DNA of 64,000 nucleotides from NCBI GenBank assembly GCA_030603385.1, contig JAUVXW010000008.1, forward strand, positions 64,001 to 128,000, given 5' to 3'. Below the pieces are notes generated by a model. That model saw nothing but the letters and a program-made list of their open reading frames with translations, was not told where the DNA came from and made no database searches. Position numbers and translations under genes: made by a program. The stretch is from Promethearchaeota archaeon (GTDB taxonomy: Archaea; Asgardarchaeota; Lokiarchaeia; Sigyniarchaeales; SOKP01). Position 1 is the first letter of the stretch. Each line of letters starts with the position of its first letter. This document shows positions 28,980 to 43,068 of this stretch, one piece after another.

Positions 28980-29333
28980 ATGAGTGAAAGAATAACAGAA
29001 ATACTTGATTCTTTAAAGGCGATTAAAGGAGTTCATGGGGCGGCTCTTATTGAGAAATTTGGTTTAATTAGAGGTAGCGCATTACCCGGATGGGTAGACC
29101 CAGAAGCTGTAGCTGCTATGGTGACCTTAATTTTGAAAGCAAGTCAAAGAGCAACTAAAGAATTAGAACAAGGGCAATTCTTTAGTGCGATAATAGAGTC
29201 TGAGAAGGGAAAAATACTTTTTAGCGAAATCGAGGGTAATATTCTCACGATAATAACTACAAAAGAAGCTAAGCTTGGTATAATTAATCTAAAATTGGAT
29301 GCTGCTAGTAATGAAATCAGAAAAGGGTTATAA
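28980..29333 (+). CDS. roadblock/LC7 (MglB-like) protein
   Basis: GVHGAALI..FGL, VAAMVTLI, LGIINLKL; 117 aa. Confidence 0.85.
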   Translation: MSERITEILDSLKAIKGVHGAALIEKFGLIRGSALPGWVDPEAVAAMVTLILKASQRATKELEQGQFFSAIIESEKGKILFSEIEGNILTIITTKEAKLGIINLKLDAASNEIRKGL

Positions 29334-29364
29334 TTTTTTCTCTATTTTTTTAAATTAAAATATC

Positions 29365-30834
29365 TTATATAATTATTCCAATTTGCTTCAGCATTTTGAA
29401 CATTATTCTTCTAGTAATTTCTGGGTCAGCTTGTCCCTTAGTTTTACCCATAACTCTACCTATTAAAGCTTCAATTGCTTTTGGATTTTTACGACAATCT
29501 TCAACGATTTTCGGGTTTTCTTTAATTACTTCTTTACAATTTCCTTCAATAATTTCTTCATTAGAAATTCTCTTTTTACCTTTCTTCTCAATTATTTTAG
29601 AAATAGAAGAACCATTCATCATTTCACTTATGAATGTTTTTGCTATTTTAGTGGTAATCTTTCCTTCATTAATGTTGTTGATTAAATCAACTACCAGTTT
29701 GGGTTGAACTTTTGTTTCTGTTATTGTCTTATTTTGCTCATTTAAATGCCGCAATATATCATTCATCAGCCAATTACAAAATTGTTTATACTCATTCGGG
29801 CCGAACGATGGGTCAGAATTCACTCCATCTTCATAAAAGTCAGCGATATCTTTATCTAGAACTAAATTCTCTGAGTCAAATTCTGATAAATTATAATCTC
29901 TTTGAAGTCTTATTGCTCTCTCGTTTGGCATTTCTGGTAATTTATCTTTAACTTGCTGGATGAAATCTTTATCAATTGCTATTGGAACTAAATCTTGTTC
30001 AGGAAAGTAGCGATAATCTTCTTCAAATTCTTTCATTCTTAGCGAAATAGTAATCCTTCTTTTATCGTCCCAATGTCTTGTTTCCTGGGTTAGCTTCTTA
30101 CCTCGTTTTAATAGATTTCTTTGTCTCTGAATTTCCCACTTTAACGCACGTTCTACTTCCTTAAAACTGCTAATATTTTTAACCTCACTTCGCTCATGTC
30201 CTTTAATTGATATATTAGCATCCACTCGAGCAGCTCCAGTTAAGTCTAAATTTGATATCCTTGTATATTGAACAATTGACTTTAATTGTTTGAGAAACTC
30301 TCTCGCTTCTTCAGGAGATCTAATAACTGGTTCGGATACGATTTCAATAAGACAAACACCAGATCGATTGTAATCCACTAAAGTATATGGAGATGTCGCG
30401 ATTGACCCTTTATGTACCAATCTTGCTGGATCCTCTTCTAAATGGATTCTGTTAAGTCTTATCTCTTTTTTTTTGCCATTTATTTTAACTGTTATATTCC
30501 CTCTATCTGCGAAAGCTCTCCCTCCTGCTTTATTGTACTGACTTATCTGAAAGCCCTTTGGTAAGTCTACGTAGAAATAATTTTTCCGGAAGAAAAACAT
30601 TGAATCATTAATTTTACTATCTAATGCTAATGCAAGTCTTGTAGCAAATTCGATTGCTCTTTCGTTTATCACAGGCAATGATCCCGGTAACCCTAAACAA
30701 ATGGGACAATTATGAGAATTTGGTTCAGCTCCTCTATAATCTGCATTACAACTGCAGAATAGTTTAGTTTTCAAATTGGTGAGTTGAATATGAACTTCTA
30801 ATCCAATTATCACGTCTTCATAATTAGAACTCAC
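29365..30834 (-). CDS. gatB: Asp/Glu-tRNA amidotransferase subunit B
   Basis: IGLEVHIQL, RKNYFY.DLPKGFQISQ, HLEED, YRYFPE; probable GTG start at 30834 after GGAGG. Confidence 0.95.
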   Translation of the reverse strand: MSSNYEDVIIGLEVHIQLTNLKTKLFCSCNADYRGAEPNSHNCPICLGLPGSLPVINERAIEFATRLALALDSKINDSMFFFRKNYFYVDLPKGFQISQYNKAGGRAFADRGNITVKINGKKKEIRLNRIHLEEDPARLVHKGSIATSPYTLVDYNRSGVCLIEIVSEPVIRSPEEAREFLKQLKSIVQYTRISNLDLTGAARVDANISIKGHERSEVKNISSFKEVERALKWEIQRQRNLLKRGKKLTQETRHWDDKRRITISLRMKEFEEDYRYFPEQDLVPIAIDKDFIQQVKDKLPEMPNERAIRLQRDYNLSEFDSENLVLDKDIADFYEDGVNSDPSFGPNEYKQFCNWLMNDILRHLNEQNKTITETKVQPKLVVDLINNINEGKITTKIAKTFISEMMNGSSISKIIEKKGKKRISNEEIIEGNCKEVIKENPKIVEDCRKNPKAIEALIGRVMGKTKGQADPEITRRIMFKMLKQIGIII

Positions 30835-30835
30835 T

Positions 30836-32317
30836 CTAATTCCCTCCATCTTTAATAGGAGCTAGTTTCCTAAAGAAATTTAATTCTTTCTCAAGTAAAT
30901 ATCCGATATTGAGAATTATTTTTTCACTGAAATAATTACCAATAATTTGAAATCCAATCGGAAGGCCTTTCGTATCAAATCCACATGGAATCGAAAGAGC
31001 AGGTAAACCCGCAAGATTCACGGGACAAGTTAAAATATCCATAAAATACATCTGTAATGGGTCATTTACTAATTCTCCAATTTTGAATGCCGTGGTGGGC
31101 ATTGTAGGGCATACGATAGCATCACATTGATTTAAAGCATTTTGAAAGTCATTTTTAATAAGAGTTCTAACTTTCAATGCCTTAATATAAAACATATCAT
31201 AATAACCAGCAGATAGGGTATAACTTCCTAGTATAATCCTTCTCCTTACTTCCCTTCCAAATCTTTCACCCCGAGTTTTACTATAAACCTCATATAAATC
31301 TCCACTAAGATCACTGCTCATACTTCCGTATCTTAAACCATCATACCTAGCCAAATTCGAACTTGCTTCGCTCATTGCTATTAAATAATAAGTAGGAATC
31401 GCATATTCTAAATGTGGAAAGGAAATCTCAATTGTCTCAGCTCCTAAACTATTCAATTTATTAATGGCTCCTTTTACTTTATTTTTTACTTCCTTCTCCA
31501 AACCTTCACCAAAAAATTCTTTAGGAATCCCAAGAGTCATTTTTGAAATTGGGTTTTGAAGTTCTTCTGTGTATTTATCCACCTTAATATCAACTGTAGT
31601 GGAGTCTAAAGGATCATAACCAGCAATGATTTCTAATAATATTGCTGTGTCATATACACATCTTGATATAGGTCCAATTTGATCTAACGAATTTGCATAT
31701 GAAACTAATCCATATCTAGAAACTCTCCCATATGTTGGTTTTAAACCCACTACACCACAATAAGAAGCGGGACATCTAATACTTCCCCCTGTATCACTTC
31801 CTAGTGAAACTGGCGTTTGACCTGAAGCTACACATGAACCCGATCCTCCACTTGATCCTCCCGGAACTCTTTCTAGGTCCCAAGGATTATAAGTTGGGCC
31901 ATAACAACTATTTTCAGTAGAAGAGCCCATAGCAAATTCATCCATATTTGTACGACCCACACATATTGCTCCTTCCTTTTCGATTAAACGGTTAATAACA
32001 GTAGCATTATAAGGTGGATAATATCCTTCTAAAATCTTAGAGCCACAAGTAGTAGGACTATCCTTAATACAAATAAGATCTTTTATTCCCATAGGTAATC
32101 CATAAAGTCTCCCTACAGGCTTACCTTTATTTAATTTTTCATCTAATTGTTTTGCTTTGTTTAGTGCTTTTTCTTTAGATAGGTGAACAAAAGAATGTAA
32201 TTTGTCTTCAGTTTTTTCTATTCTTTCATAAATTTGGTATATTAATTCTTCGATGGTAATTTCTTTACTCTTTATTTTCTCAATTAGTTCATATGCCATG
32301 TATTCATAGAGTTTCAT
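30836..32317 (-). CDS. gatA: Asp/Glu-tRNA amidotransferase subunit A
   Basis: NMDEFAMGSSTE, GGSSGGS, DTGGSIRCPA, SSNLARYDG. Confidence 0.96.
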   Translation of the reverse strand: MKLYEYMAYELIEKIKSKEITIEELIYQIYERIEKTEDKLHSFVHLSKEKALNKAKQLDEKLNKGKPVGRLYGLPMGIKDLICIKDSPTTCGSKILEGYYPPYNATVINRLIEKEGAICVGRTNMDEFAMGSSTENSCYGPTYNPWDLERVPGGSSGGSGSCVASGQTPVSLGSDTGGSIRCPASYCGVVGLKPTYGRVSRYGLVSYANSLDQIGPISRCVYDTAILLEIIAGYDPLDSTTVDIKVDKYTEELQNPISKMTLGIPKEFFGEGLEKEVKNKVKGAINKLNSLGAETIEISFPHLEYAIPTYYLIAMSEASSNLARYDGLRYGSMSSDLSGDLYEVYSKTRGERFGREVRRRIILGSYTLSAGYYDMFYIKALKVRTLIKNDFQNALNQCDAIVCPTMPTTAFKIGELVNDPLQMYFMDILTCPVNLAGLPALSIPCGFDTKGLPIGFQIIGNYFSEKIILNIGYLLEKELNFFRKLAPIKDGGN

Positions 32318-32397
32318 TTACAGCAAACCACACTTTTAAATATTGTAGGAAAAGGATCTATTTAATATCTCTTATTTGGTGTCATGAGTTCATTTTT

Positions 32398-33699
32398 TTA
32401 AGGTGCTTTTCTTAACATAGTTCTGGGGAATGGAATGGCATCTTTAATATTATCTAACCCACATAACCACATAATAACTCTCTCAACACCTAAACCATAA
32501 CCAGAATGAGGTACACTGCCATAACGCCTCAATTCAAAGTACCACTCATAATTTTTTGGATCTTCCCCGTCAGCTTCTAATCTCTTTATCATATTCTCTA
32601 GTAATAAAGAACGCTCTGAACCACCAACAATTTCACAATATCTTTCTGGCGCTAACATGTCAAAACATAATGCTTCTTTAGGATTTTCTTCACTTGGTGG
32701 TTTATAAAAACCCATAATTTCTGTGGGATAATGCGTGACAACAACAGGAACTTTGAAATGTTCAGCAATTTTCGTTTCTTCCATAGTTCTTAAATCTTTA
32801 CCCCAAGGAACATTCATTTTATATTTTGTATTAAGGATATCTAAAGCTTCTGAATATTTTATAGTTGGATATTCAGCTTCTGTATAATGCTCTAACAATT
32901 TAATATCTCTCTCTAAAATTTCTAGTTCTTTTTTATTATGCTTCAATACTTCTTTCACAATAAACCTAATTTCATCTTTAGCAACTTCTGTAACTTCATC
33001 AAGTTGCATCCACGCAGCTTCCATTTCTGCCATCCAGAATTCTGATAAATGTCTTGATGTTTTTGATTTTTCTGCTCTAAACGTTGGACCCATATTGTAA
33101 ATTTTACCTAATGAAAAAATACCTGCTTCAGCATATAATTGCCATGTTTGACTAAGATATGTTATGTCGTCAAAATATTTAACCTCAAATAGGGTGGCTC
33201 CACCTTCAGATTGGTTGGGTTGGAAAATAGGTGCATCAAATTTATAATAACCATGACTTCTAAAAAATTCATGTATAGCTCCAACAACTGTATGCCTGAT
33301 TTTTAGAATTGCATTTAATTTTCTTGATCTTATCCAAAGATGCCTATTATCATATAAAAGCTCTGGTGATTGATGTTCTGTAATTGGAAACGGTTCAGCT
33401 ATTTGAACGATTTGTAAATCTGACACAGAAACCTCATAACCCGTTGGAGCTCTTTCATCCTCCTTTAGATCCCCTGAAATTTTAACCGAAGATTCAATTG
33501 TTAACTTTTCAGCTTTCTCAAATATCTCTGGGCTCTTAGCTTTTGATATAACACATTGTATTATGTCCGATTCATCCCTTAGGACTATAAATACAAATTT
33601 ATTTGATTTTCTTTCTCTATATACCCAACCTCTTAAATTCACATTAGAATCTTCTTGTTTTAACGATTCTTCAATGGTTGTATATTTTAAATCCTTCAT
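32398..33699 (-). CDS. asnS: asparagine--tRNA ligase
   Basis: FRAEKSKTSRHLSEFWM, EIVGGSER, RRYGSVPHSGYGLGVER, IPFPR. Confidence 0.9.
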   Translation of the reverse strand: MKDLKYTTIEESLKQEDSNVNLRGWVYRERKSNKFVFIVLRDESDIIQCVISKAKSPEIFEKAEKLTIESSVKISGDLKEDERAPTGYEVSVSDLQIVQIAEPFPITEHQSPELLYDNRHLWIRSRKLNAILKIRHTVVGAIHEFFRSHGYYKFDAPIFQPNQSEGGATLFEVKYFDDITYLSQTWQLYAEAGIFSLGKIYNMGPTFRAEKSKTSRHLSEFWMAEMEAAWMQLDEVTEVAKDEIRFIVKEVLKHNKKELEILERDIKLLEHYTEAEYPTIKYSEALDILNTKYKMNVPWGKDLRTMEETKIAEHFKVPVVVTHYPTEIMGFYKPPSEENPKEALCFDMLAPERYCEIVGGSERSLLLENMIKRLEADGEDPKNYEWYFELRRYGSVPHSGYGLGVERVIMWLCGLDNIKDAIPFPRTMLRKAP

Positions 33700-33793
33700 T
33701 TTTGAATTGTGAGAATGTTTTATGAATTTAAACTTACAATACTAGTAGAAATAAGCGATTTCTAAAAAATTTGACTGATTTTAATTCTAAAAT

Positions 33794-34579
33794 CTAATTT
33801 TCTTCCTGCTTTCTAAGAAGATATTTAGAGAAGATATTCATATAAAGACACTCTTCCGGTGCCATTTCGGGAGTTAACTGGGGATTTTCCGTGAACTCAA
33901 CATTGCTTCCCCTAATAATAACCACTGGAGTTTGTTGATCAGCTTCACTTAGAAGAAATTGAGCGGCACTAGTAAGATCATCTGCTATCGCTCTCATTGT
34001 AATTTCCATAGGTCTTTTAAAGAGATCTGGGTGTCCTCGCAAATCTTCAACAGGTTCAAATCCAGCTGTAGCTATAGCGATTCCAATAGTACCTTTTCTG
34101 AGAGGTTGAACCCTTGAATCTGCTATTATCACTCCCAGTTTTTCTATCCCAAACTCTTTTCTTAATTCTTTCCAGTATTCCCAAACAACTTTTTTAAGAT
34201 CCTTTGGGAGTAAAACAACTCTATTTGGTCCTGCATTTGATTGATCGATTCCAGCATTAGCAATTAAAAAATTATTCACCTTGGCTAAGATGACATGTGT
34301 CATTCCTCCTAAAATCATTGACGCTTCCTGCATTATCAGTTCTACAAAACGTTCATCCATATCATACTCTTTTGCCATTTCCTTCGCTTTTTCTGAAACA
34401 TTTGTTACATCAGATAGGTTTATCACTCTTCCCTGTGAAGTAGCTATTACTTTTTCTGCAATTACAATAATATCTCCTTCTTTTAAAGATTCCCCTTGTT
34501 TGGCTATGTTTTCAATTATGATACTCAATAAATTATCATTTTCTTTAATAAGGGGTAGTTTAATTGAAAATAGTTCCAT
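33794..34579 (-). CDS. cofE: CofE-family gamma-glutamyl ligase
   Basis: GDIIVIAEKV..SQGR, ANAGIDQSN, IIADS, DLRGHPDLF, TPVVIIRG. Confidence 0.85.
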   Translation of the reverse strand: MELFSIKLPLIKENDNLLSIIIENIAKQGESLKEGDIIVIAEKVIATSQGRVINLSDVTNVSEKAKEMAKEYDMDERFVELIMQEASMILGGMTHVILAKVNNFLIANAGIDQSNAGPNRVVLLPKDLKKVVWEYWKELRKEFGIEKLGVIIADSRVQPLRKGTIGIAIATAGFEPVEDLRGHPDLFKRPMEITMRAIADDLTSAAQFLLSEADQQTPVVIIRGSNVEFTENPQLTPEMAPEECLYMNIFSKYLLRKQEEN

Positions 34580-34761
34580 TGTAGGAAAGAAGAATTAATT
34601 TTATTTAATATTATTTCGGTTTTATCAAAAAGTGGTGATAATTAAGTTAATTAGATAACAAATGAAATAATAAAATTATATCAATGGATAAAATTAACGT
34701 GACTCTAGATCTTCATCAATTAAACTTATTTGAAATAATGAGTTCATTTTATTGATAACAC

Positions 34762-35625
34762 ATGAAAAATTTATACCTGAATTTATTTGATACTTTAGAG
34801 ATTGGGGATAACTTCCCAACGGTAATAATGGGTGTTTTGAATTTAAGTCCTGAGAGTTTTTACCAAGGATCTGTTTATTCCAATACTCACTCTTTAGAGA
34901 ATGCTACAATAGAAATGATAAATAACGGTGCGAAAATATTAGATTTGGGTGCTCGATCTTCTGCTCCCTGGTCTCAAAAAATTACTACTGAAAAAGAAAT
35001 TAACCGATTAAGTTCAGCTATGGAATCTGTTTGCAACATCATTCCAGACGATATTATTATCTCTGTTGATACTCAATATAGTGAAGTTGCTCAAGTTGCT
35101 TATGACATTTCTCTAAAACATAAAAAAAAAATTATCGTCAATGACGTAAGTTGTTTAAAAACAGACCCTTCCCTACAAGATTTTATAATTGAACATGATC
35201 TTCCAATCATTTTAATGGCATCGAAAAAAATTCCCGGAGATTTATGTACAATTGAAGAAATAATCCAAGAATTTGAAAAAACTATAAAAAAACTTCAATC
35301 ACAGGGCTATAATGCGAATCAGATTATTTTAGACCCTGGTATAGGTAAATGGATTAAAAAAAAAGTACATACTTATGATTTGAAAATAATAGGGAATTTA
35401 AAAAAGCTTAGGAAACTTGAGAAACCTATTTTAGTAGCCATTTCAAGAAAATCGTTTATTGGTACTACACTAAATCTTCCTGATCCTGAAGATAGATTGA
35501 GTGGAACGCTCTCTTCAACAGCAATAGCGATCTATAATGGGGCTCATATTGTTCGAACTCATGACGTAGACAAAAGGCTCTTTGAAATGGTAAAAATGGC
35601 TGAGGAAATCCGAAGAAATCAGTAG
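34762..35625 (+). CDS. folP: dihydropteroate synthase
   Basis: MGVLNLSPESF, ISVDT, NDVS, DPGIG, SRKSF, RTHDV. Confidence 0.9.
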   Translation: MKNLYLNLFDTLEIGDNFPTVIMGVLNLSPESFYQGSVYSNTHSLENATIEMINNGAKILDLGARSSAPWSQKITTEKEINRLSSAMESVCNIIPDDIIISVDTQYSEVAQVAYDISLKHKKKIIVNDVSCLKTDPSLQDFIIEHDLPIILMASKKIPGDLCTIEEIIQEFEKTIKKLQSQGYNANQIILDPGIGKWIKKKVHTYDLKIIGNLKKLRKLEKPILVAISRKSFIGTTLNLPDPEDRLSGTLSSTAIAIYNGAHIVRTHDVDKRLFEMVKMAEEIRRNQ

Positions 35626-35908: not shown

Positions 35909-37933
35909 ATGCCTGAAAAAGAAAATAACTCTTATGATGCTGATGATATCACCGTTTTGAAAGGCTTGGACGGAGTAAGACGTCGTCCAGCAATGTACAT
36001 CGGCGATCAAGGGAAGAAGGGACTTCACCACCTTATTTTTGAAGTACTTGATAACTCTGTCGATGAAGCGATTGGGGGATATGCTGATGAGATAAAGGTA
36101 ACGCTTTACAAAGATAATTCAGTTCAAATATCTGATAATGGTCGGGGGATTCCTATTGATGAACACCCCGAATATAAGAGACCTGCACTTGAAGTAATCA
36201 TGGAACATTTACATGCTGGTGGTAAGTTTGATAATAAAAGTTATAAAATTTCAGGTGGCTTACATGGCATTGGGCTTTCAGTTGTGAATGCTTTAACTGA
36301 ATGGATGGATGTTGAGGTCTGTCGTGATGGACTCCTCTATAAACAGAAATTCTCAAAAGGAAAAAAAGCGACAGAAGCCGAAATAACAGAAGTAAAACCC
36401 ACGAAATCTTACACAAAGATCAAATTTTATCCAGATAATTCTATTTTTGAATTTGATCCAAATGATCCAATATTCAGTGCACATACTATTACTACAAGGA
36501 TACGAGAGCTTGCATTCCTTAATCCACACACGCGATTTGAACTTCATGATAAATTTAAAGACGAAACAGAAGAATTTCATTATGAAGGAGGATTAAAAGA
36601 ATTTGTAACGTATTTAAATAAAGATAGACAGCCTTTACATAATGATATTATTTATATAAGCGATTCTTTTGATGATAAAGATGGTTCTACGGTAATGTGT
36701 GAAATTGCAGCGCAATACAACCAAGGATATCAGACAAATATTCTATCTTATGCAAATACAATAAACACAATTGAGGGAGGAACCCATTTGACCGGATTTA
36801 AATCAGCCTTGACAAGGGGTTTTAATTCTTATATCGAAAATTATATGGAAAAGAAGTATAAAGACCATGTATTAAGTGGGACTGACACAAGAGAAGGATT
36901 ATCCGCAGTAATTTCAGTTAAACTTCCTGAACCTCAATTTGAAAGTCAAACAAAAATTAAGTTAGGAAATCCAGAAATTCGTCAGATTGTAAGCCAGATG
37001 GTTACTGATAGATTAACTCAATATTTAGAGGAACATCCACAAACAGCTAAGAGAATTATTTTAAAAACTATTAATGCTAAAATAGCTCGTGAAGCAGCTC
37101 AAAAAGCTAGATTGCTAATCCGTAGAAAATCTGCATTAGATAGTGCAAGGATGCCTGGCAAACTTGCTGATTGTTCTTCTAATAATCCCGAAGAATCTGA
37201 ACTTTTTATCGTTGAGGGAAATTCAGCTGGAGGTTCTGCTAAGCAAGGAAGAGATAGAAATTACCAAGCCATTCTTCCTCTTAGAGGTAAGATATTAAAT
37301 GTAGAAAAAGCACGTATAGATAAGGTACTTCAAAACAATGAGATTCAATCTATTATCAAGGTCTTGGGAGTAGGATTTCAAGAAGATAATGAACAAAATG
37401 GGACAAATGGGACAAATGCTGGAACTGAAGAAGCTGAAGAAACTGAAAAAAACTTAGATTTAAGTAAGTTGCGATATCACAAAGTAGTAATAATGTGTGA
37501 CGCAGATATCGATGGTTTCCATATTGAAACCTTATTACTTACTTTCTTTTTTAGATATATGCGTCCTTTAATAGATGAAGGACATCTCTATATTGCATGT
37601 CCGCCGTTATATAAAGTCAGTTATAAGAAAAATAAAGAATATGTTTACACAGATAAAGAAAAAGATGATTTTATCCAAGAACTAAAAACAAAATATGAAC
37701 TAAAAGATACATCCTCAGTTAAGATCTCTCGATATAAAGGGCTTGGTGAAATGAATGCAGAGGAGCTCTATATGACAACAATGAATAGAGACACTAGGAA
37801 ACTAAAGAAAGTTACTTATGAAGATTATTTAGAAAACGATTTAATGTTTACTAAACTCATGGGTAAAGAAGTAAAACCCCGGAAAAAGTTTATAATCAGC
37901 CATTTTGATGAAGTAAATGTGTTAGATATCTAA
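35909..37933 (+). CDS. gyrB: DNA gyrase subunit B
   Basis: VRRRPAMYIG, EVLDNSVDE, DNGRGIP, VEGNSAGG, PLRGKILNV, DADIDG, RYKGLGEM. Confidence 0.96.
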   Translation: MPEKENNSYDADDITVLKGLDGVRRRPAMYIGDQGKKGLHHLIFEVLDNSVDEAIGGYADEIKVTLYKDNSVQISDNGRGIPIDEHPEYKRPALEVIMEHLHAGGKFDNKSYKISGGLHGIGLSVVNALTEWMDVEVCRDGLLYKQKFSKGKKATEAEITEVKPTKSYTKIKFYPDNSIFEFDPNDPIFSAHTITTRIRELAFLNPHTRFELHDKFKDETEEFHYEGGLKEFVTYLNKDRQPLHNDIIYISDSFDDKDGSTVMCEIAAQYNQGYQTNILSYANTINTIEGGTHLTGFKSALTRGFNSYIENYMEKKYKDHVLSGTDTREGLSAVISVKLPEPQFESQTKIKLGNPEIRQIVSQMVTDRLTQYLEEHPQTAKRIILKTINAKIAREAAQKARLLIRRKSALDSARMPGKLADCSSNNPEESELFIVEGNSAGGSAKQGRDRNYQAILPLRGKILNVEKARIDKVLQNNEIQSIIKVLGVGFQEDNEQNGTNGTNAGTEEAEETEKNLDLSKLRYHKVVIMCDADIDGFHIETLLLTFFFRYMRPLIDEGHLYIACPPLYKVSYKKNKEYVYTDKEKDDFIQELKTKYELKDTSSVKISRYKGLGEMNAEELYMTTMNRDTRKLKKVTYEDYLENDLMFTKLMGKEVKPRKKFIISHFDEVNVLDI

Positions 37934-37948
37934 TCTATATAATTTTAT
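37914..37948 (+). repeat. 35-bp direct repeat, left copy (includes gyrB last codons and stop)
   Basis: TAAATGTGTTAGATATCTAATCTATATAATTTTAT; 33/35 match to 38674-38708. Confidence 0.9.
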
Positions 37949-37988
37949 GCAAATATTCAAAATAAATATGCAAATATTCAAAATAAAT
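37947..37988 (+). repeat. perfect 21-bp tandem duplication (MQIFKIN x2)
   Basis: ATGCAAATATTCAAAATAAAT twice. Confidence 0.95.
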
Positions 37989-38672
37989 AGTTATATAACA
38001 TTAAAGTTGGAAAATAGTAAGACTAATATTTACATCAATGAAATTTTATTTAGACAATGTAAATACTTATTATTAAAAAGACTAAAAATTAATGACTTAG
38101 GAACTTATTTAAACGAATTCAAATCTATTGATGAAGAATCTGAGAATTTAGATCATTCATTAGAGCATGAGCCTTCTGAAATACCGCCTAAGACCGAGTT
38201 TTGGGCACATTGTTCCAATCTACAAGTCTGGGCAGAACATAACTACGATACCAATATGCTACATTATTCGCTTTCGTTTGATCTTTTGAAGAAATTAGCA
38301 GAGGTCGGTGATATACAAGCAAAAAGAGGATTTAAAGATGAATTAGTTAGAAGGCTTCTAAGTGGTTATATCCCCGTGTTTTGTTACTTATTCTTTGAAG
38401 GGTTCTTGAAAATTTTTTCTAAGGATGAAATAAAAGATATATTGAAGGAAGTTAAAAGAAAAAATTACTTAGTTTACCTCGTCTATTCGACAATCTTAAT
38501 TGGAGAAGATGAAAACTTTCTACAGTATAACAAAAAGAAATTGATAAAATTTACATTTATGATAGAGAATTTTCTAGAATCTGACTGCTTCGAAAATCTC
38601 CATCTAAAAGATCCAGAAATTGATGATTTCGTAAATGCATTAAGAAAATTAAAACAAAAAATAAAAAATTAG
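37947..38672 (+). CDS. Lokiarchaeal-type hypothetical protein (domain usually N-terminal to LRRs), inserted between gyrB and gyrA
   Basis: FKINSYITLKLE..KTNIY...QCKYLLL, SIDE, EFWAHCSNLQVWAEHNYDT, LLKKL..VGD. Confidence 0.8.
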   Translation: MQIFKINMQIFKINSYITLKLENSKTNIYINEILFRQCKYLLLKRLKINDLGTYLNEFKSIDEESENLDHSLEHEPSEIPPKTEFWAHCSNLQVWAEHNYDTNMLHYSLSFDLLKKLAEVGDIQAKRGFKDELVRRLLSGYIPVFCYLFFEGFLKIFSKDEIKDILKEVKRKNYLVYLVYSTILIGEDENFLQYNKKKLIKFTFMIENFLESDCFENLHLKDPEIDDFVNALRKLKQKIKN

Positions 38673-38673
38673 T

Positions 38674-38708
38674 TAAATGTGTTGGATATCTAATTTATAT
38701 AATTTTAT
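38674..38708 (+). repeat. 35-bp direct repeat, right copy
   Basis: TAAATGTGTTGGATATCTAATTTATATAATTTTAT. Confidence 0.9.
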
Positions 38709-38740
38709 ATTTATTTAAATTAAAATATTAGGTCATTATT

Positions 38741-41188
38741 TTGACTTCAGAACAAATTGAAGAGATATTGTTAAAAGAAGAGATGGTAAGTAGCTATATA
38801 GATTATAGCATGAGCGTAATCATCGGAAGGGCCATTCCTGATGTAAGAGATGGACTTAAACCTGTTCAGAAAAGAATTATCTATGCGATGTCTGAAGGTG
38901 GATGGGATTCGCGTTCTTCTCTTGTTAAATGTGCTAAAATAGTAGGACAAGTTTTAGGGAATTATCATCCTCATGGGGATTCAGCTATATATGGTGCGCT
39001 TGTAAGAATGGGGCAGGATTTTTCTCTAAGATATCCATTAATAGATCCACAAGGTAATTTTGGTTCAGTTGATGGAGATCCTCCCGCAGCTTATAGATAT
39101 ACAGAAGCAAGACTTTCTCGTATTTCTGATGAATTAATTGAGGATATAAATAAAGAGACTGTCGAATTTATACCAAACTTTGATGATAGTAAGGTTGAAC
39201 CTGTTTATTTACCTGCAAAATTGCCAAATATTCTAATAAATGGGACAAAGGGTATTGCTGTAGGTATGGCTACTTCAATGCCTCCTCATAATTTAAATGA
39301 AATTTGTCAAGGTATAATTGCCACTATTGACGATCCTGAAATATCAATTCAAGAACTTATGGAAATTATTAAAGGTCCTGATTTTCCTACAGGAGGGTTT
39401 ATTTCAGATATAAATGGTATTTATAATGCATACACTACTGGAATTGGTAATGTAAATATTAGAGGGAATGTTGAAACTGAGGTTAAAGGTGAAAAAACTA
39501 GCTTAATTATTACAGAAATTCCTTATTTAGTAAACAAATCTTTATTGATAGAATCAATTGCTAAATTAATAAGGGATGGTGTTCTTAAAGATATAAGAGA
39601 TTTAAGAGACGAATCTGATAGACACGGGATGCGTATAGTTATAGATTTAACTAAAAATGCTCAACCCGTTATCATTAAAAACATCTTATTTAAAAGAACT
39701 AGACTGTTTAACAGTTTTAATATTATTAACTTAGTTTTAATTAACAATGGAAAGCAACCAAAAATTTTAACTTTAAAAGAAATAATTCAAGAATATATAA
39801 ATCATCGTCTCCTCATCATTAAAAGGAGAATAGAATTTGATCTAAGAAAAGCTGAGGATCGTCTTCATAAAGTAGAAGGTCTACTCATTGCTTTGAATGA
39901 TATTGATAACGTTGTAAATATAATTAAAAAAGCGAAGGATACAAAAGAAGCAAAGATAAAATTAATAGAAGCCTACAGCTTAAGTGAAATTCAGGTTCAA
40001 GCGATACTGAGCATGCAATTATCCCGTTTGACTAATTTAGAAAATCAAAAATTAGTAGATGAGGAGAAATCACTTAATGAGAGCATTAAAAAATACAAAG
40101 AAATTATAGCGAGCGAGCAAATACAGTTAGATATAATAAAGGGTGAACTAACTGATCTAAGTGAAAAATATGGAGATCCAAGGAAATCTAAAATAGAATT
40201 AAGTGGAGATGAATCGCTTAATGAAATTGAAAAAAAAGACCTTATTAAAAATGAGCCAACGATAGTTATTTTTACAAAGAATCAATATATAAAAAGGATT
40301 TCAGTTGAAGAATATCGTACTCAAGGAAGAGGGGGGCGTGGTAAAAAAGGAATGACCATACGTGAAGAAGATTTCATTATAGATTTATTTGTATGTTCTA
40401 CACACGATACAATTCTGGTGTTTACCTCAAAAGGAAGAGTTTATTCAATAAAAAGTTATAATATTTCCCTTCAAAAACGCACAGCGCGTGGAAAACCAAT
40501 TATTAATTTAATACCCCTACAACCTGGTGAAAAGATATCTTCAATGATACCCATTAATAACTTTAATACCAATGAAATGCTCATAATGACAACGAAAAAT
40601 GGGATAATAAAGAAATCCCCGCTAAAACTGTTTTCAAAATTTAGAAGTACAGGTGTTAGAGCTCAACGAATAAGACCAGATGATGAATTAGTAAGTGTAA
40701 AAAGGCTTTCAAACGAGCTAGAAGATATTTTTATAGCAACGAAACTTGGATACGCTATTAGATTTGACGAATCTGAATTGCGAGAGTTAGGAAGAACCTC
40801 TATGGGTGTAAAAGGCGCGGATTTAAGAGAAGGAGATGAAGTCATTGACTCACTTTTAGTCTCAAATGATGAAATCATCTTAACTTTAACTAAAAACGGA
40901 TATGGTCAAAGAACCTTCGTAAAGGAATATAGAAAAACAGGTAGAAGCGCCAAAGGAGTCATAAACATAACACTAAATAAAATAAAAAATGATAAAGTAA
41001 TCGCGATTAAAATTGCTAAACATATGGATCTATTAATTGGAACAGAACAAGGGCAAATGATAAGAGTACCTGTAGATTCAATAAGAATTACTCATAGAAA
41101 GGCAAAGGGTGTTAGGGTCATTAAGTTGTATGAAAATGATTCGGTAATTGGAATCGGAAAGTGTGAAAAAGAAGATCAAATATCTTAA
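38741..41188 (+). CDS. gyrA: DNA gyrase subunit A
   Basis: [26 protein letters not shown], GyrA-box QGRGGRG, beta-pinwheel repeats. Confidence 0.96.
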
Positions 41189-41547
41189 CTTTTATTTTTA
41201 AGATATGGAACAAGGCAAATAAATACAAGATTATCTTTACCTAAATTATCTATTCCATGTTTTTCATTAGGTGGAATGTATATTATATCTCCCATTTTTG
41301 CCTTTTCTTGCTGCCCTTTATCATTATAAAATTTACCCTCCCCAGATAATACATATATCTCATGATCTTCTGGATGATTGTGAAGTGGAACCATTCCCCC
41401 CGGTTTAATTTCAAATCGTCTCATCGCAAAATTCTTTGCACCAGAATTTGTGTCAATTAACCATCTCACATAAACATCCTTTACTTCTCTCCCATCCATT
41501 AAAGTAGCTTGTTTTTCTTCTACATCTGCATAATTTTTTTTTATCAT
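41185..41547 (-). CDS. cupin domain protein
   Basis: [32 protein letters not shown]. Confidence 0.9.
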
Positions 41548-41621
41548 AATTTAAACAAAATTCTTAATCTATTAAAATGATATCAAATTAAAATTAAATT
41601 AGATAAAGATAGGTTCCCACC

Positions 41622-42554
41622 ATGACAAAGAAAATTTCTATTGGTTTTGACCATACTCATAATAATAAGCTTATTATCGAAAATCAAGCTTTTACTGACT
41701 TTATACAGTACTTATTTGATTCCGGTTTTCAACTAGGAAAAATTGAGGCTGGAATAACTTCTGAAAAACTAGCTAGTTATGATCTTTTCATAATTGGAGT
41801 CCCACATTTGGGTCCTAATTTAGGTTTAGATGAGATAAAAGATTTAGTCGATTATGTTAAGAATGGTGGAAGTCTCCTTATAATAAATGATGGTGGTGGA
41901 GACTACGAAAACAAAAATAATTTATCTGAATTAACCAAAAACTTTGGGATAAGTTTTAATAATGATATATTGTATGATAACAAATCGTTCTCCCAAGAAA
42001 ATTCTCATCCTATTATTAAAGATTTCAGCCCTCATTATATAACAAGAGATTTAAACCAATTCATACACTCTAATGGTTGTACATTAACAGTAGATAAGTC
42101 TATTGAAGATGAGAAAATTGATGTTAATAGTATTGCATATTCTTCAGAAAACACTTCATGGCATAGTTATCTAAATGAAGATGGTTGGCATGATGAATCA
42201 TTGCAGCATCTTCCTATTATAGGGGCAGTACACTATGATATAGGGAAAGTTGTTACCATTGGTAATCTCTCAATATTTTCAAGTTTAAATAAACTATATG
42301 GCATCAGTGCGGCAGATAACTTTAAATTGGTATCTAATGTTATTTCTTGGTTATTGAACAAAGCTGGTTCTGAAGAAGAAAGGGCGTTAAAGCCTATCTT
42401 CTCAACTGTTGCGATAAGTCAAGACCTATTTTATTGGACTAAAGATATGATAAATCTAGGAAGATGGAAAAACCTTGAAGAAGCAATCAATTTTGCTTTA
42501 AGAATAGTTAAACTAAGATTGAAGGAATCTAAGAAGAATGATAAAGACGAATAA
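41622..42554 (+). CDS. GldG/IFT52 (GIFT)/DUF4350-like protein with C-terminal ribbon-helix-helix-like tail
   Basis: FDHTHNN, YDLFIIG.P, DYVKNGGSLL, GKVVTIG, DNFKLVSNVISWL; tail GRWKNLEEAINFAL. Confidence 0.6.
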   Translation: MTKKISIGFDHTHNNKLIIENQAFTDFIQYLFDSGFQLGKIEAGITSEKLASYDLFIIGVPHLGPNLGLDEIKDLVDYVKNGGSLLIINDGGGDYENKNNLSELTKNFGISFNNDILYDNKSFSQENSHPIIKDFSPHYITRDLNQFIHSNGCTLTVDKSIEDEKIDVNSIAYSSENTSWHSYLNEDGWHDESLQHLPIIGAVHYDIGKVVTIGNLSIFSSLNKLYGISAADNFKLVSNVISWLLNKAGSEEERALKPIFSTVAISQDLFYWTKDMINLGRWKNLEEAINFALRIVKLRLKESKKNDKDE

Positions 42555-43068
42555 AGACGAATTATTGATTGGATTGATTGGTGATACTCACATTCCTTCG
42601 AGAGTATCAGAAATCCCCGCTCATATATTAAATGATTTTAAGGAAAAAAAAATTGACTATTTAATCCACGTCGGAGATTTCACTGATTTGAAAGTATATA
42701 ATAACCTTCTAGAAACATTTGGAAAAGATAAAGTAATTGGGATTTTAGGAAATATGGATAATCATCAGTTAAAAAAAATCCTACCTGAAAAAGTCGAATT
42801 AAATTTATATGGACACAATATTTTCATAACACACGGGACGGGAGGACCAAATATTATAATAAAAAGGTTGAATAAATTGTTTGATTTAACTGATTATGAT
42901 ATCATAATTTTTGGTCACGTTCATCACCCATATAATGAAAGATGGAGAGATGGAAAGCTATATATTAGTCCAGGCTCCCCCACTGACAAAGTTTTTACTG
43001 ATATTAACTCTTATGGTTTTCTTAGGATATCTAAGGAAAAAATTGAACCTGAAATTGTATATTTATAA
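42538..43068 (+). CDS. YfcE/Vps29-family metallophosphoesterase
   Basis: GDTHIP, HVGD, GNMD, THG, FGHVH, SPGS. Confidence 0.88.
   Translation: MIKTNKDELLIGLIGDTHIPSRVSEIPAHILNDFKEKKIDYLIHVGDFTDLKVYNNLLETFGKDKVIGILGNMDNHQLKKILPEKVELNLYGHNIFITHGTGGPNIIIKRLNKLFDLTDYDIIIFGHVHHPYNERWRDGKLYISPGSPTDKVFTDINSYGFLRISKEKIEPEIVYL

Follow-up and report, generated by a model that had tools for sequence, protein, structure and literature searches.

Background

The closest described parallel to the locus considered here is insertion with long target duplication (ILTD), a process recognized from bacterial restriction-modification genes (Nobusato 2000, Gene 259:99; Furuta, Abe and Kobayashi 2010, PMC2853133). 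As defined there, the duplicated target exceeds 30 bp and is variable in length, no other mobile element takes part, and the repeats often lie across a start or stop codon; insertions into operon-like structures were seen, and the 2010 screen kept no archaeal case (PMC2853133). The published account of ILTD leans on DNA breakage by the restriction enzyme that the cargo itself encodes.

Two further groups of systems invite comparison. Integron cassettes with attC sites and elements with att sites similarly place single, promoter-poor genes beside a resident promoter and between direct repeats. The other group comprises two processes that follow DNA uptake, homology-facilitated illegitimate recombination and allelic replacement. 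Here we describe a single-gene insertion between gyrB and gyrA of a Promethearchaeota archaeon (hereafter G000), found in a 64,000-nt stretch of one contig (the window), and compare it with these systems. The insertion departs from the bacterial examples of ILTD both in its host, an Asgard archaeon, and in its cargo, which belongs to neither restriction-modification nor defence and has no recognizable DNA-breaking enzyme as its product.

Results and discussion

A single gene bracketed by a direct repeat of its target

The genes folP-like, gyrB, gyrA and cupin make up the neighborhood according to their Pfam domains, and between gyrB and gyrA a single ORF of 241 aa is enclosed by the two copies of a 35-nt direct repeat (Table 1). 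The copies agree at 33 of 35 positions and lie 760 nt apart from start to start, the second beginning 1 nt past the TAG stop codon of the ORF; the earlier note's report of a 35-bp repeat with two mismatches after the stop of the inserted gene is thereby confirmed. Copy 1 is the functional one, consisting of the final 17 nt of gyrB, its TAA stop codon and the first 15 nt of the spacer, and copy 2 is a dead gyrB end, in which the TTA leucine codon has become TTG, followed by the start of the spacer with TTTATATAA. When up to three mismatches are allowed the 35-mer has two matches in the window, against none expected from 100 shuffles, and even at seven mismatches its sole occurrences in the 3.9-Mb genome are the two copies at this junction.

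Table 1. Features of the gyrB-gyrA junction of G000 (positions are those of the window)
Feature	Position	Strand	Basis
gyrB, 674 aa; last 17 nt and stop codon lie within repeat copy 1	35909..37933	+	Pfam DNA_gyraseB, Toprim, HATPase_c, DNA_gyraseB_C
Tract whose ancestry differs from that in the nearest relative (G019), enclosing the insert	~36450..39050		sliding identity, pairwise tables, trees
Repeat copy 1, functional copy	37914..37948	+	repeat search, DNA motif search
TATA-like box TCTATATAA inside copy 1, putative promoter	37934..37942	+	sequence
Perfect 21-nt tandem duplication, 2 x TATGCAAATATTCAAAATAAA, at left insert edge	37946..37987	+	repeat search
Inserted ORF P0001, 241 aa	37947..38672	+	ORF call, family alignment, structure models
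Inserted DNA proper, 725 nt	37949..38673	+	absent from 40 of 40 assembled genus junctions
Repeat copy 2	38674..38708	+	repeat search, DNA motif search, alignment with empty sites
Rest of native 47-nt gyrB-gyrA spacer	38709..38740	+	alignment with empty sites of G002, G004, G019
gyrA, 815 aa, TTG start	38741..41188	+	Pfam DNA_topoisoIV, 6 x DNA_gyraseA_C

The state of the site before insertion can be read from relatives. Of 53 other genomes in the genus, 40 have the junction assembled, with the ends of the two genes sharing a contig, and in every one of these gyrB and gyrA are adjacent without the inserted gene, an empty site of the kind the earlier note had proposed to look for; the same adjacency is also present in other families of the order. 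In G002, G004 and G019 the sequences matching the two flanks of the insert overlap by the repeat, which accordingly exists there as one target copy, and copy 2 together with the sequence downstream of it reproduces the 47-nt spacer of G002 base for base. The G000 intergenic distance of 807 nt equals 47 plus 760, and the proposal that removal of the unit restores a compact gyrB-gyrA pair is borne out by the spacers of 42-52 nt in the 17 congeners aligned at the base level. The restored spacer includes a Shine-Dalgarno-like AGGT motif 8 nt ahead of the gyrA start.

Within the 760-bp unit there is no recombinase, transposase or integrase gene, and its only ORF has no match in Pfam, NCBIfam or PADLOC, in agreement with its initial description as a one-gene unit devoid of such enzymes. 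A repeat search uncovered no terminal inverted repeats at the insert ends; nor is there an attC, for which the insert, ending 1 nt past the stop codon, leaves no room. An insertion sequence, MITE or other DNA transposon was rejected as a candidate on account of the missing inverted repeats, duplications ranging from 35 to 137 nt and a closest paralogue that is only 47-50% identical as a protein.

The left edge of the insert carries a tandem duplication, absent from the earlier note, which doubles the first seven codons of the ORF (MQIFKIN, the start codon plus six more). Alignments with the orthologues P0002 and P0004 begin at the second methionine, and position 37968 is the probable true start. 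The TATA-like box of copy 1 lies ~26-34 nt upstream of this second ATG, and 17 relatives have an equivalent AT-rich motif after the gyrB stop, suggesting that the duplicated box may serve as a promoter. The portrayal of the unit as a promoterless cassette is not supported, as the duplicated 35 nt puts a TATA-like box before both the new gene and gyrA, and the insert of a paralogue on contig C51 brings 110 nt of its own leader.

Comparable insertions at other loci

Repeat-bracketed insertions recur elsewhere in G000. The C51 paralogue is flanked by a 137-nt duplication and has empty sites in G002 and G019 (the latter at 96-98% identity), and an unrelated gene, encoding an α/β-hydrolase (C12), lies in a 114-nt duplication with an empty site in G002 (contig C22); the 1008-bp unit of the hydrolase recurs at another locus in G002 and G004. 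Both these inserts include 110-120 nt of upstream DNA, probably with their promoters. No core is shared among the targets of the 35-, 114- and 137-nt events. From the C51 and hydrolase cases we conclude that the insertion process is general and not specific to the family of the inserted gene; the suggestion that the scar captures how this family spreads is not supported, given the unrelated cargo bracketed in the same manner. There is nevertheless an excess of bracketed family genes (2-3 of 13, against ~25 of ~2990 other ORFs; Fisher p 0.006 to 0.0002), which could reflect some family-linked bias, and on unrelated metagenome contigs two of 72 family loci have flanking repeats, of 99 and 77 nt. 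The scan of paralogues that the earlier note had proposed was in this respect productive, with the C51 gene furnishing both repeats and empty sites.

Several candidate regularities were set aside. Both family inserts end exactly 1 nt past a TAG stop codon and the end of the hydrolase insert has CTAG; this was dropped as a coincidence, given that the motif is absent from the other 30 bracketed units and that stop-codon use in the family is ordinary. The family genes also share no 3'-end DNA motif. A G004 paralogue located beside the C51 site was rejected as an orthologue or proxy for the donor, having only the N-terminal domain and ~90 nt of leader in common, and a paralogue on C35 with 64-nt repeats was not accepted as a firm third case, as it resides in a hypervariable stack for which five relatives show no collinear empty site; it is a possible third bracketed member of the family.

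The inserted gene as probable cargo

The N-terminal domain of P0001 carries the invariant family motif FWxHCSNxQxW, with H88, C89 and the aromatic residues invariant. The family has 17 matches in G000, where N-domain fusions to LRR, WD40 and Ras-type GTPase domains occur, and database homologues show fusions to LRR, TPR and Ras-type GTPase domains; the earlier note's view of the family as expanded and often LRR-fused is supported. The helical C-terminal half is found in only three other database proteins. The only close orthologues, P0002 and P0003, are 84-85% identical and encoded on ENA contigs (1.3 and 2.0 kb) of independent assemblies, and the genome contains no second copy of the unit, its closest paralogue being the distant one mentioned above. 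No donor locus for the insert was found in the genomes of the genus and the genome and metagenome contigs compared. Searches with P0004 against the genome contigs recovered nothing beyond 41-44% identical paralogues, the C-terminal half had no match among metagenome contigs, a four-sequence alignment retrieved from those contigs only paralogues of at most 56% identity, and the 53 other genomes of the genus contain nothing related to the C-terminal 103 aa.

Structure models of good confidence (pLDDT 82 and 86) predict a four-strand β-sheet followed by helical repeats. Foldseek searches with the whole protein or the N-domain returned nothing below E 0.8, VIA gave Z scores of at most 6.1 on the helical C-half alone, and all matches in the fold searches were of the generic helical-repeat kind. 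In line with these models, the gene probably encodes a helical scaffold or adaptor without enzymatic activity, from a fast-turnover family specific to Asgard archaea. Because the predicted fold combines a small β-sheet with helical repeats and matches no enzyme, P0001 is unlikely to be a mobility protein, and the inserted gene is probably the cargo and not the agent of its insertion.

Insertion with long target duplication and its alternatives

Several features align the locus with ILTD: one genome has the insert where its relatives have an empty site; the repeats on either side correspond to a single-copy target and exceed 30 bp, with lengths of 35, 114 and 137 nt across the events found here; there is no transposase or integrase; the insertion is within an operon-like gene pair; and the repeat spans the stop codon, so that the target gene survives. 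We consider it likely that the structure is a scar of ILTD, and on this reading the gyrB-gyrA case is a clean example of that process, not a new kind of mobile element or a new principle. The published idea that DNA cleavage by the cargo triggers the event falls here, because this cargo has no recognizable DNA-breaking enzyme.

The course of events may be envisaged as follows. A 725-nt DNA with one accessory gene would have been joined into the gyrB-gyrA spacer, 15 nt past the gyrB stop, with 35 nt of the target copied to both sides of it during the joining. With no recombinase encoded in the insert, the joining was most likely the work of the host's enzymes for DNA repair or replication; conceivably, breaks with a wide stagger were filled in, or a polymerase resumed copying 35 nt behind the point where it had left its template. 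Such a duplication would leave gyrB intact, give gyrA back its full native 47-nt upstream region and set a second copy of the spacer's TATA-like box before the new gene. The 21-nt tandem duplication, probably a later event, may then have brought the start codon to the distance expected for a near-leaderless transcript.

The alternatives differ chiefly in the agent they invoke. In a Campbell-type entry, the circular intermediate of the earlier note, a 760-bp circle made up of the gene and one 35-nt copy would have been excised from another genome through recombination between the repeats and integrated by a single crossover in the matching 35 nt of the empty site, yielding exactly the observed structure with direct repeats that permit excision. 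We regard this as improbable, as it explains neither the first insertion nor those at other targets, 35 nt offer homologous recombination a very short substrate, and the foreign ancestry described below, which covers 1.5 kb of gyrB and 0.3 kb of gyrA, is far more than a 760-bp circle would carry; because the divergent sequence extends this far into both genes, a double crossover in the flanking genes fits instead. Att-based integration, too, typically leaves direct repeats that duplicate a gene's 3' end, and G000 does have integrase-type cassette arrays with short conserved repeats (C19, C42). Yet a 760-bp miniature element with the 35-mer as attP, the gyrB end as attB and a tyrosine or serine recombinase acting in trans is an improbable explanation: the 35-mer is restricted to this locus, the sister events used unrelated 137- and 114-nt targets, the unit has neither a recombinase gene nor a second genomic copy, and an insert running from start codon to 1 nt past the stop has no space for a site of its own. 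Here, unlike in integrons and att elements, there is no attC-like element, conserved core, integrase or array, and the repeat is the local target.

If instead the His/Cys N-domain were a nuclease or transposase making staggered cuts, the unit would be a self-mobilizing cassette and the expansion of the family would be accounted for, an idea which draws on the invariant H88/C89 and aromatic residues and on the frequency of bracketing among paralogues (2-3/13) and metagenome loci (2/72) against a background of ~1%. We deem it highly improbable in view of the lack of flanking repeats at most family genes, the same scar around unrelated cargo, the absence of a common 3'-end motif, models that matched no nuclease or recombinase in the fold searches, and fusions to LRR, TPR, WD40 and Ras GTPase modules, which are adaptor-like; the earlier note's alternative of a mobility domain is disfavored on the same grounds. 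Processed genes of eukaryotes have target duplications of variable length, and insertion of a reverse-transcribed mRNA at a nick would agree with the variable duplications here, the limits of the insert and its A-rich 3' end. However, that end is coding sequence (KQKIKN), and the 110-120 nt of upstream DNA in the sister inserts, probably with promoters, would be missing from an mRNA copy, leaving retro-insertion with hardly any plausibility. An assembly artefact merits mention in so far as G000 is a metagenome-assembled genome with 7% estimated contamination, but is just as implausible: the repeats differ at two positions and hence are no k-mer collapse, the insert lies within a 137-kb contig, independent assemblies contain 84-85% identical orthologues of its protein, and scars of the same type with clean empty sites occur at other loci.

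Probable movement of the allele by homologous recombination

The surroundings of the insert bear on its later history. The insert is enclosed in a tract of ~2.6 kb that is ~82% identical to the nearest relative, G019, with sharp edges beyond which identity is 94-98% on both sides (~97% in the flanks), and the tree of the tract conflicts with that of the adjacent gyrA segment. We therefore attribute the presence-absence difference between G000 and G019 to allelic replacement by homologous recombination; the position of the insert inside the tract suggests that a gene-bearing or gene-less allele was exchanged between species through gyrB/gyrA homology. The insertion event is not recent and did not necessarily occur in G000's own lineage. 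About a quarter of the 14 kb compared between G000 and G019 is mosaic, so that the insert could sit in a divergent tract by chance. No donor of the G000 or G019 tract was found among the 53 congeners, the best matches being no higher than 82-86%, and neither distances nor the tree, nor a search for some nearly identical source of the G019 allele, gave a polarity for the replacement.

Of the circular or homology-directed entry originally proposed, the homology-directed part holds in one sense, that of a recombinant gyrB'-gyrA' tract, and the circle is improbable. The same junction in the congener G005 contains a dead gyrA fragment (its first 38 codons, 85% identical), the mark left by one join that was homologous and one that was illegitimate. 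This fragment, and the location of the insert within a foreign tract of gyrB and gyrA sequence with sharp edges, recall homology-facilitated illegitimate recombination and allelic replacement, which explain the movement of the allele between species but not the origin of the 35-nt duplication.

Conclusions

The gyrB-gyrA junction offers a base-resolved case within a conserved gene pair, with 40 empty sites for comparison. An archaeal ILTD scar whose cargo shows no sign of DNA cutting speaks for the host's repair or replication machinery as the agent. It also illustrates how a target duplication can shield the upstream gene while giving the inserted and the downstream gene a promoter each, and how an insertion of this kind, once made, may move between species through ordinary homologous recombination of its flanks. 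A bolder extension, which we think unlikely, is that ILTD, needing no recombinase, is a main route through which Asgard archaea acquire and reshuffle rapidly expanding eukaryote-like genes for signalling and scaffolding (the N-domain family, Ras-type GTPases, TPR and LRR proteins), with a real bias towards them or a dedicated host activity that would make long staggered breaks. If this were true, a promoter-poor gene could be expressed immediately within an essential operon, using a duplicated promoter.

Insertion of a single gene between gyrB and gyrA

In the genome under study (G000, a metagenome-assembled genome with an estimated contamination of 7%) gyrB and gyrA are separated by an ORF for a 241-aa protein, P0001, which is flanked by two 35-nt direct repeats lying 760 nt apart and identical at 33 of 35 positions. 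At up to 3 mismatches the 35-mer occurs at these 2 places in the window and in none of 100 shuffles, and at up to 7 mismatches the same 2 places are its sole occurrences in the whole 3.9-Mb assembly. The DNA into which the right copy runs on aligns, base by base, to the spacer seen in relatives. A single ORF is present in the insert; it has no match in Pfam, NCBIfam or PADLOC, and there is no space for a recombination site; neither inverted repeats at its ends nor a second copy of it in G000 were found. The first seven codons of the ORF are doubled by a perfect 21-nt tandem duplication, and as the alignments of the database orthologues P0002 and P0004 begin at the second methionine, the original start was likely at 37968.

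Coordinates of the gyrB-gyrA junction (window) and of other repeat-bracketed units
Feature	Position	Remarks
gyrB (GyrB)	35909-37933	Pfam
35-nt direct repeat, copy 1	37914-37948	final 17 nt of gyrB, TAA stop and 15 nt of spacer
TATA-like motif, copy 1	37934-37942	4 nt ahead of the first ATG of the new gene
Perfect 21-nt tandem duplication	37946-37987	
Intervening ORF (P0001)	37947-38672	
35-nt direct repeat, copy 2	38674-38708	begins 1 nt past the TAG stop of the inserted ORF
TATA-like motif, copy 2	38694-38702	native distance to gyrA kept
gyrA (GyrA)	38741-41188	Pfam
Closest paralogue of P0001, 495 aa	G000:C51:16294-17781	flanked by a duplicated 137-nt stretch (135/137 identical)
Bracketed C51 unit	G000:C51:16047-17919 (L002:1257-3129)	paralogue with 110 nt of leader; 137-nt repeats
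Alpha/beta-hydrolase gene unit, 1008 bp	G000:C12:38166-39401 (L156:1367-2602)	114-nt repeats copying the 3' end of the next gene
Family gene, marine sediment metagenome	L093:358-1562	99-nt repeats copying the coding end of the neighbour
Family gene, marine sediment metagenome	L138:3183-5096	77-nt repeats copying the coding end of the neighbour

A 2-kb query spanning the junction shows the end of gyrB adjoining the start of gyrA in the nearest genomes, and in three congeners (G002, G004 and G019) the overlap between its left and right matches is as long as the repeat. In the 17 junctions that were read the gyrB stop is followed by 42-52 nt and then by the gyrA start. Both gyr ends lie on one contig in 40 of the 53 other species of the genus and are adjacent in all 40; a search of these species with the 725-nt insert gave no match at any of the 40 assembled junctions. 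The two genes are also neighbours in genomes of other families within the order. Given these empty sites and a G000 spacer of 807 nt, i.e. 47 + 760, the earlier note was right both in describing a repeat-bracketed gene and in stating that removal of the unit restores a compact gyrB-gyrA pair.

The duplication would also bear on transcription. In 17 relatives the spacer has two motifs: an AT-rich TATA-like one after the gyrB stop, some 38-46 nt ahead of the gyrA start, and GGTG/AGGT, 8-10 nt upstream of that start. In G000 the TATA-like motif (T[C/T]TATATAA) falls inside the duplicated 35 nt. Its left copy would be too close to the first ATG of the new gene, but lies ~26-34 nt ahead of the second ATG, which was made by the tandem duplication; this is the spacing expected between such a motif and the start codon of a near-leaderless archaeal transcript. 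The cassette, previously described as promoterless, is promoter-poor but not promoterless, because the target duplication appears to have supplied it with a putative promoter.

Allelic replacement at the gyrase locus

The nearest sequenced relative by far is G019, with 97% identity over 29000-35400 and 96-98% over 41250-43000. Identity drops sharply to ~82% at ~36450 and returns to 95-97% at ~39100, and the divergent tract between these points comprises the insertion site flanked by 1.48 kb of gyrB and 0.3 kb of gyrA. Its tree has the form (G019,(G002,(G000,(G004,G048)))) with 97-98% support, in conflict with that of the adjacent kilobase of gyrA, where G000 and G019 are sisters (support 99/98). 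With these sharp boundaries and conflicting trees, the difference between G000 and G019 at the insertion site is one of allelic replacement, the gyrB and gyrA sequences having served for homologous recombination. Either G000 imported the gene-bearing allele or G019 imported an empty one; G000 is 1-3 points nearer to the outgroups than G019, and none of the other 53 species matches either allele above 82-86%. Further short mosaic tracts against G019 (40200-40750 and 40950-41250, at 73-87% in a 95-97% background) lie in the 3' portion of gyrA and where gyrA meets the cupin gene. Mosaicism extends to about one quarter of the region compared, so the insert may lie within the divergent tract by chance overlap. 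The gyrase genes of the genus are recombination mosaics. The two mismatches in 35 nt and the presence of orthologues elsewhere at 84-85% protein identity agree with an insertion that is not recent.

Three side observations concern this region. The 5' part of gyrB is nearer to G048 than to G002, the flanks showing the opposite. In another congener (G005:C169, L037:2085-2502) the usual 47-nt spacer is followed by a dead, stop-terminated gyrA copy of the first 38 codons, then by a 47-nt spacer-like stretch and the live gyrA, the two gyrA 5' ends being identical at 97 of 114 positions (85%). The arrangement resembles what a foreign gyrA allele would leave behind after entry by one homologous and one illegitimate crossover, and is a further sign of frequent recombination of foreign gyr DNA at this junction. 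Finally, at window 34670-34684, the interval from the gene at 33794-34579 to the pterin-binding gene is longer by ~1.4 kb in G019; the flanking alignments overlap by 15 nt in G000, suggesting an insertion in G019 with a 15-nt target duplication.

The inserted protein

The N-terminal ~160 aa of P0001 form the domain of the FWxHCSNxQxW family, with invariant F85, W86, H88, C89, S90, N91, Q93 and W95. The domain has 17 matches in G000, where its fusion partners are LRR, WD40 and Ras-type GTPase modules; in homologues from databases the partners are LRR, TPR and Ras-type GTPase modules. Judged by source names and atlas clusters, the domain occurs in Promethearchaeota and other Asgard groups. The helical C-terminal half is found in three other database proteins only (84%, 85% and 59% identity). 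AlphaFold models of the whole protein (pLDDT 82) and of the His/Cys-containing N-domain (pLDDT 86) show a four-strand sheet followed by helical repeats. Foldseek gave no match below E 0.8 for either, and VIA-align gave generic helical matches only (Z at most 6.1), on the C-terminal half. In these profile and fold searches nothing pointed to a nuclease or recombinase, as would befit the mobility protein that had been considered, and P0001 is read as a probable adaptor or scaffold that was the cargo of the insertion.

Other repeat-bracketed genes

A scan of the whole G000 assembly for single ORFs between compact direct repeats (30 nt or longer) found 31 of 3005 ORFs so bracketed, tandem paralogues and cassette arrays included. 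Among them is the closest paralogue of P0001, on contig C51, whose repeat starts at the start codon of the neighbouring gene. This site is empty in G002 (G002:C1) and in G019 (G019:C71; 96-98% identity, overlap of exactly 137 nt). Its intergenic region also shows an inversion polymorphism: in about half of the congeneric genomes searched, the adjoining small gene (G000:C51:17949-18257) has the opposite orientation with respect to its neighbour. Of 72 family genes with sufficient flank on metagenome contigs, 2, on unrelated contigs, have long brackets that duplicate the end of an adjacent gene, which is the scar seen at gyrB too.

The earlier proposal that the scar marks the way in which this family spreads is not supported, as unrelated cargo is bracketed too. 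One case is the hydrolase on contig C12, with an empty site in G002:C22; in G019 the gene is present at this site with its left repeat reduced to 24 nt. In G002:C2 and G004:C113 the same 1008-bp unit has another conserved gene as its neighbour, in a place where G000 (C48:23373) lacks it. Judged by their flanking repeats, genes for a nitronate monooxygenase, a ClpP-like protease, a TPR protein and a Ras-type GTPase are among the further candidate cargo in G000. Family genes are bracketed more often (2-3 of 13 versus ~25 of ~2990 others; Fisher p 0.006 to 0.0002), but on a small number of non-independent cases, and young insertions are expected to be commoner in a family with fast turnover. No common core among the repeats of different events and no common motif among insert ends were found.

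Certain other sites deserve mention. Both family inserts of G000 stop exactly 1 nt beyond TAG (window 38670-38674, TTAG+T; G000:C51:17779-17783, TTAG+A) and the hydrolase insert terminates in CTAG; the TAG-plus-1-nt regularity is absent from other bracketed units, and is possibly due to chance. At G000:C39:68766-70469 (L163) a 30-38-nt sequence (AAAA.TT.GCTCAAGAACATACTCC.TCT) is present in three copies with short units between them, one of these being a gene for a 175-aa Ras-family GTPase; G019:C67 lacks ~2.35 kb there, with flanking matches overlapping by 59 nt, and this may be a stacked or array-like insertion site. At G000:C24:37397-38444 (L161) an exact 30-nt repeat, overlapping the two final codons and the stop of the ORF itself, flanks a 307-aa ORF without Pfam match.

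Mechanism and relation to known insertions

These insertions combine target duplications of variable length with the lack of an element-encoded enzyme or conserved site, and spread by homologous recombination. Entry of a 760-bp circle by a single crossover would yield flanking repeats, but cannot account for the foreign tract in the flanks. An mRNA intermediate is unlikely, because the sister inserts bring 110-120 nt of upstream DNA with them. Host enzymes would instead have made the joint, either by fill-in of widely staggered breaks or by template switching in repair synthesis. Slippage of a polymerase would agree with the perfect 21-nt tandem duplication seen at the left joint, but this may also have arisen later. 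At the joints of the C12 insertion, the only event with a donor-like locus, no clear microhomology was found, the donor proxy being 13% diverged and the test accordingly weak.

The pattern at gyrB-gyrA matches that of insertion with long target duplication (ILTD), an indel relative to a related genome with a duplicated target of variable length above 30 bp and without other mobile elements, in which the repeats often cross a start or stop codon such that the target gene is kept intact; insertion into operon-like structures has been observed (PMC2853133). Furuta, Abe and Kobayashi (2010) found it for restriction-modification genes in bacteria only, no archaeal cases surviving their screen, and suggested that DNA breakage by the cargo takes part (PMC2853133). 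Here, in contrast, the host is an Asgard archaeon and the cargo a non-defence gene. The gyrB-gyrA case is hence a real, clean and base-resolved example of this known kind of insertion, later exchanged by homologous recombination, and such insertion is not peculiar to the FWxHCSNxQxW family.
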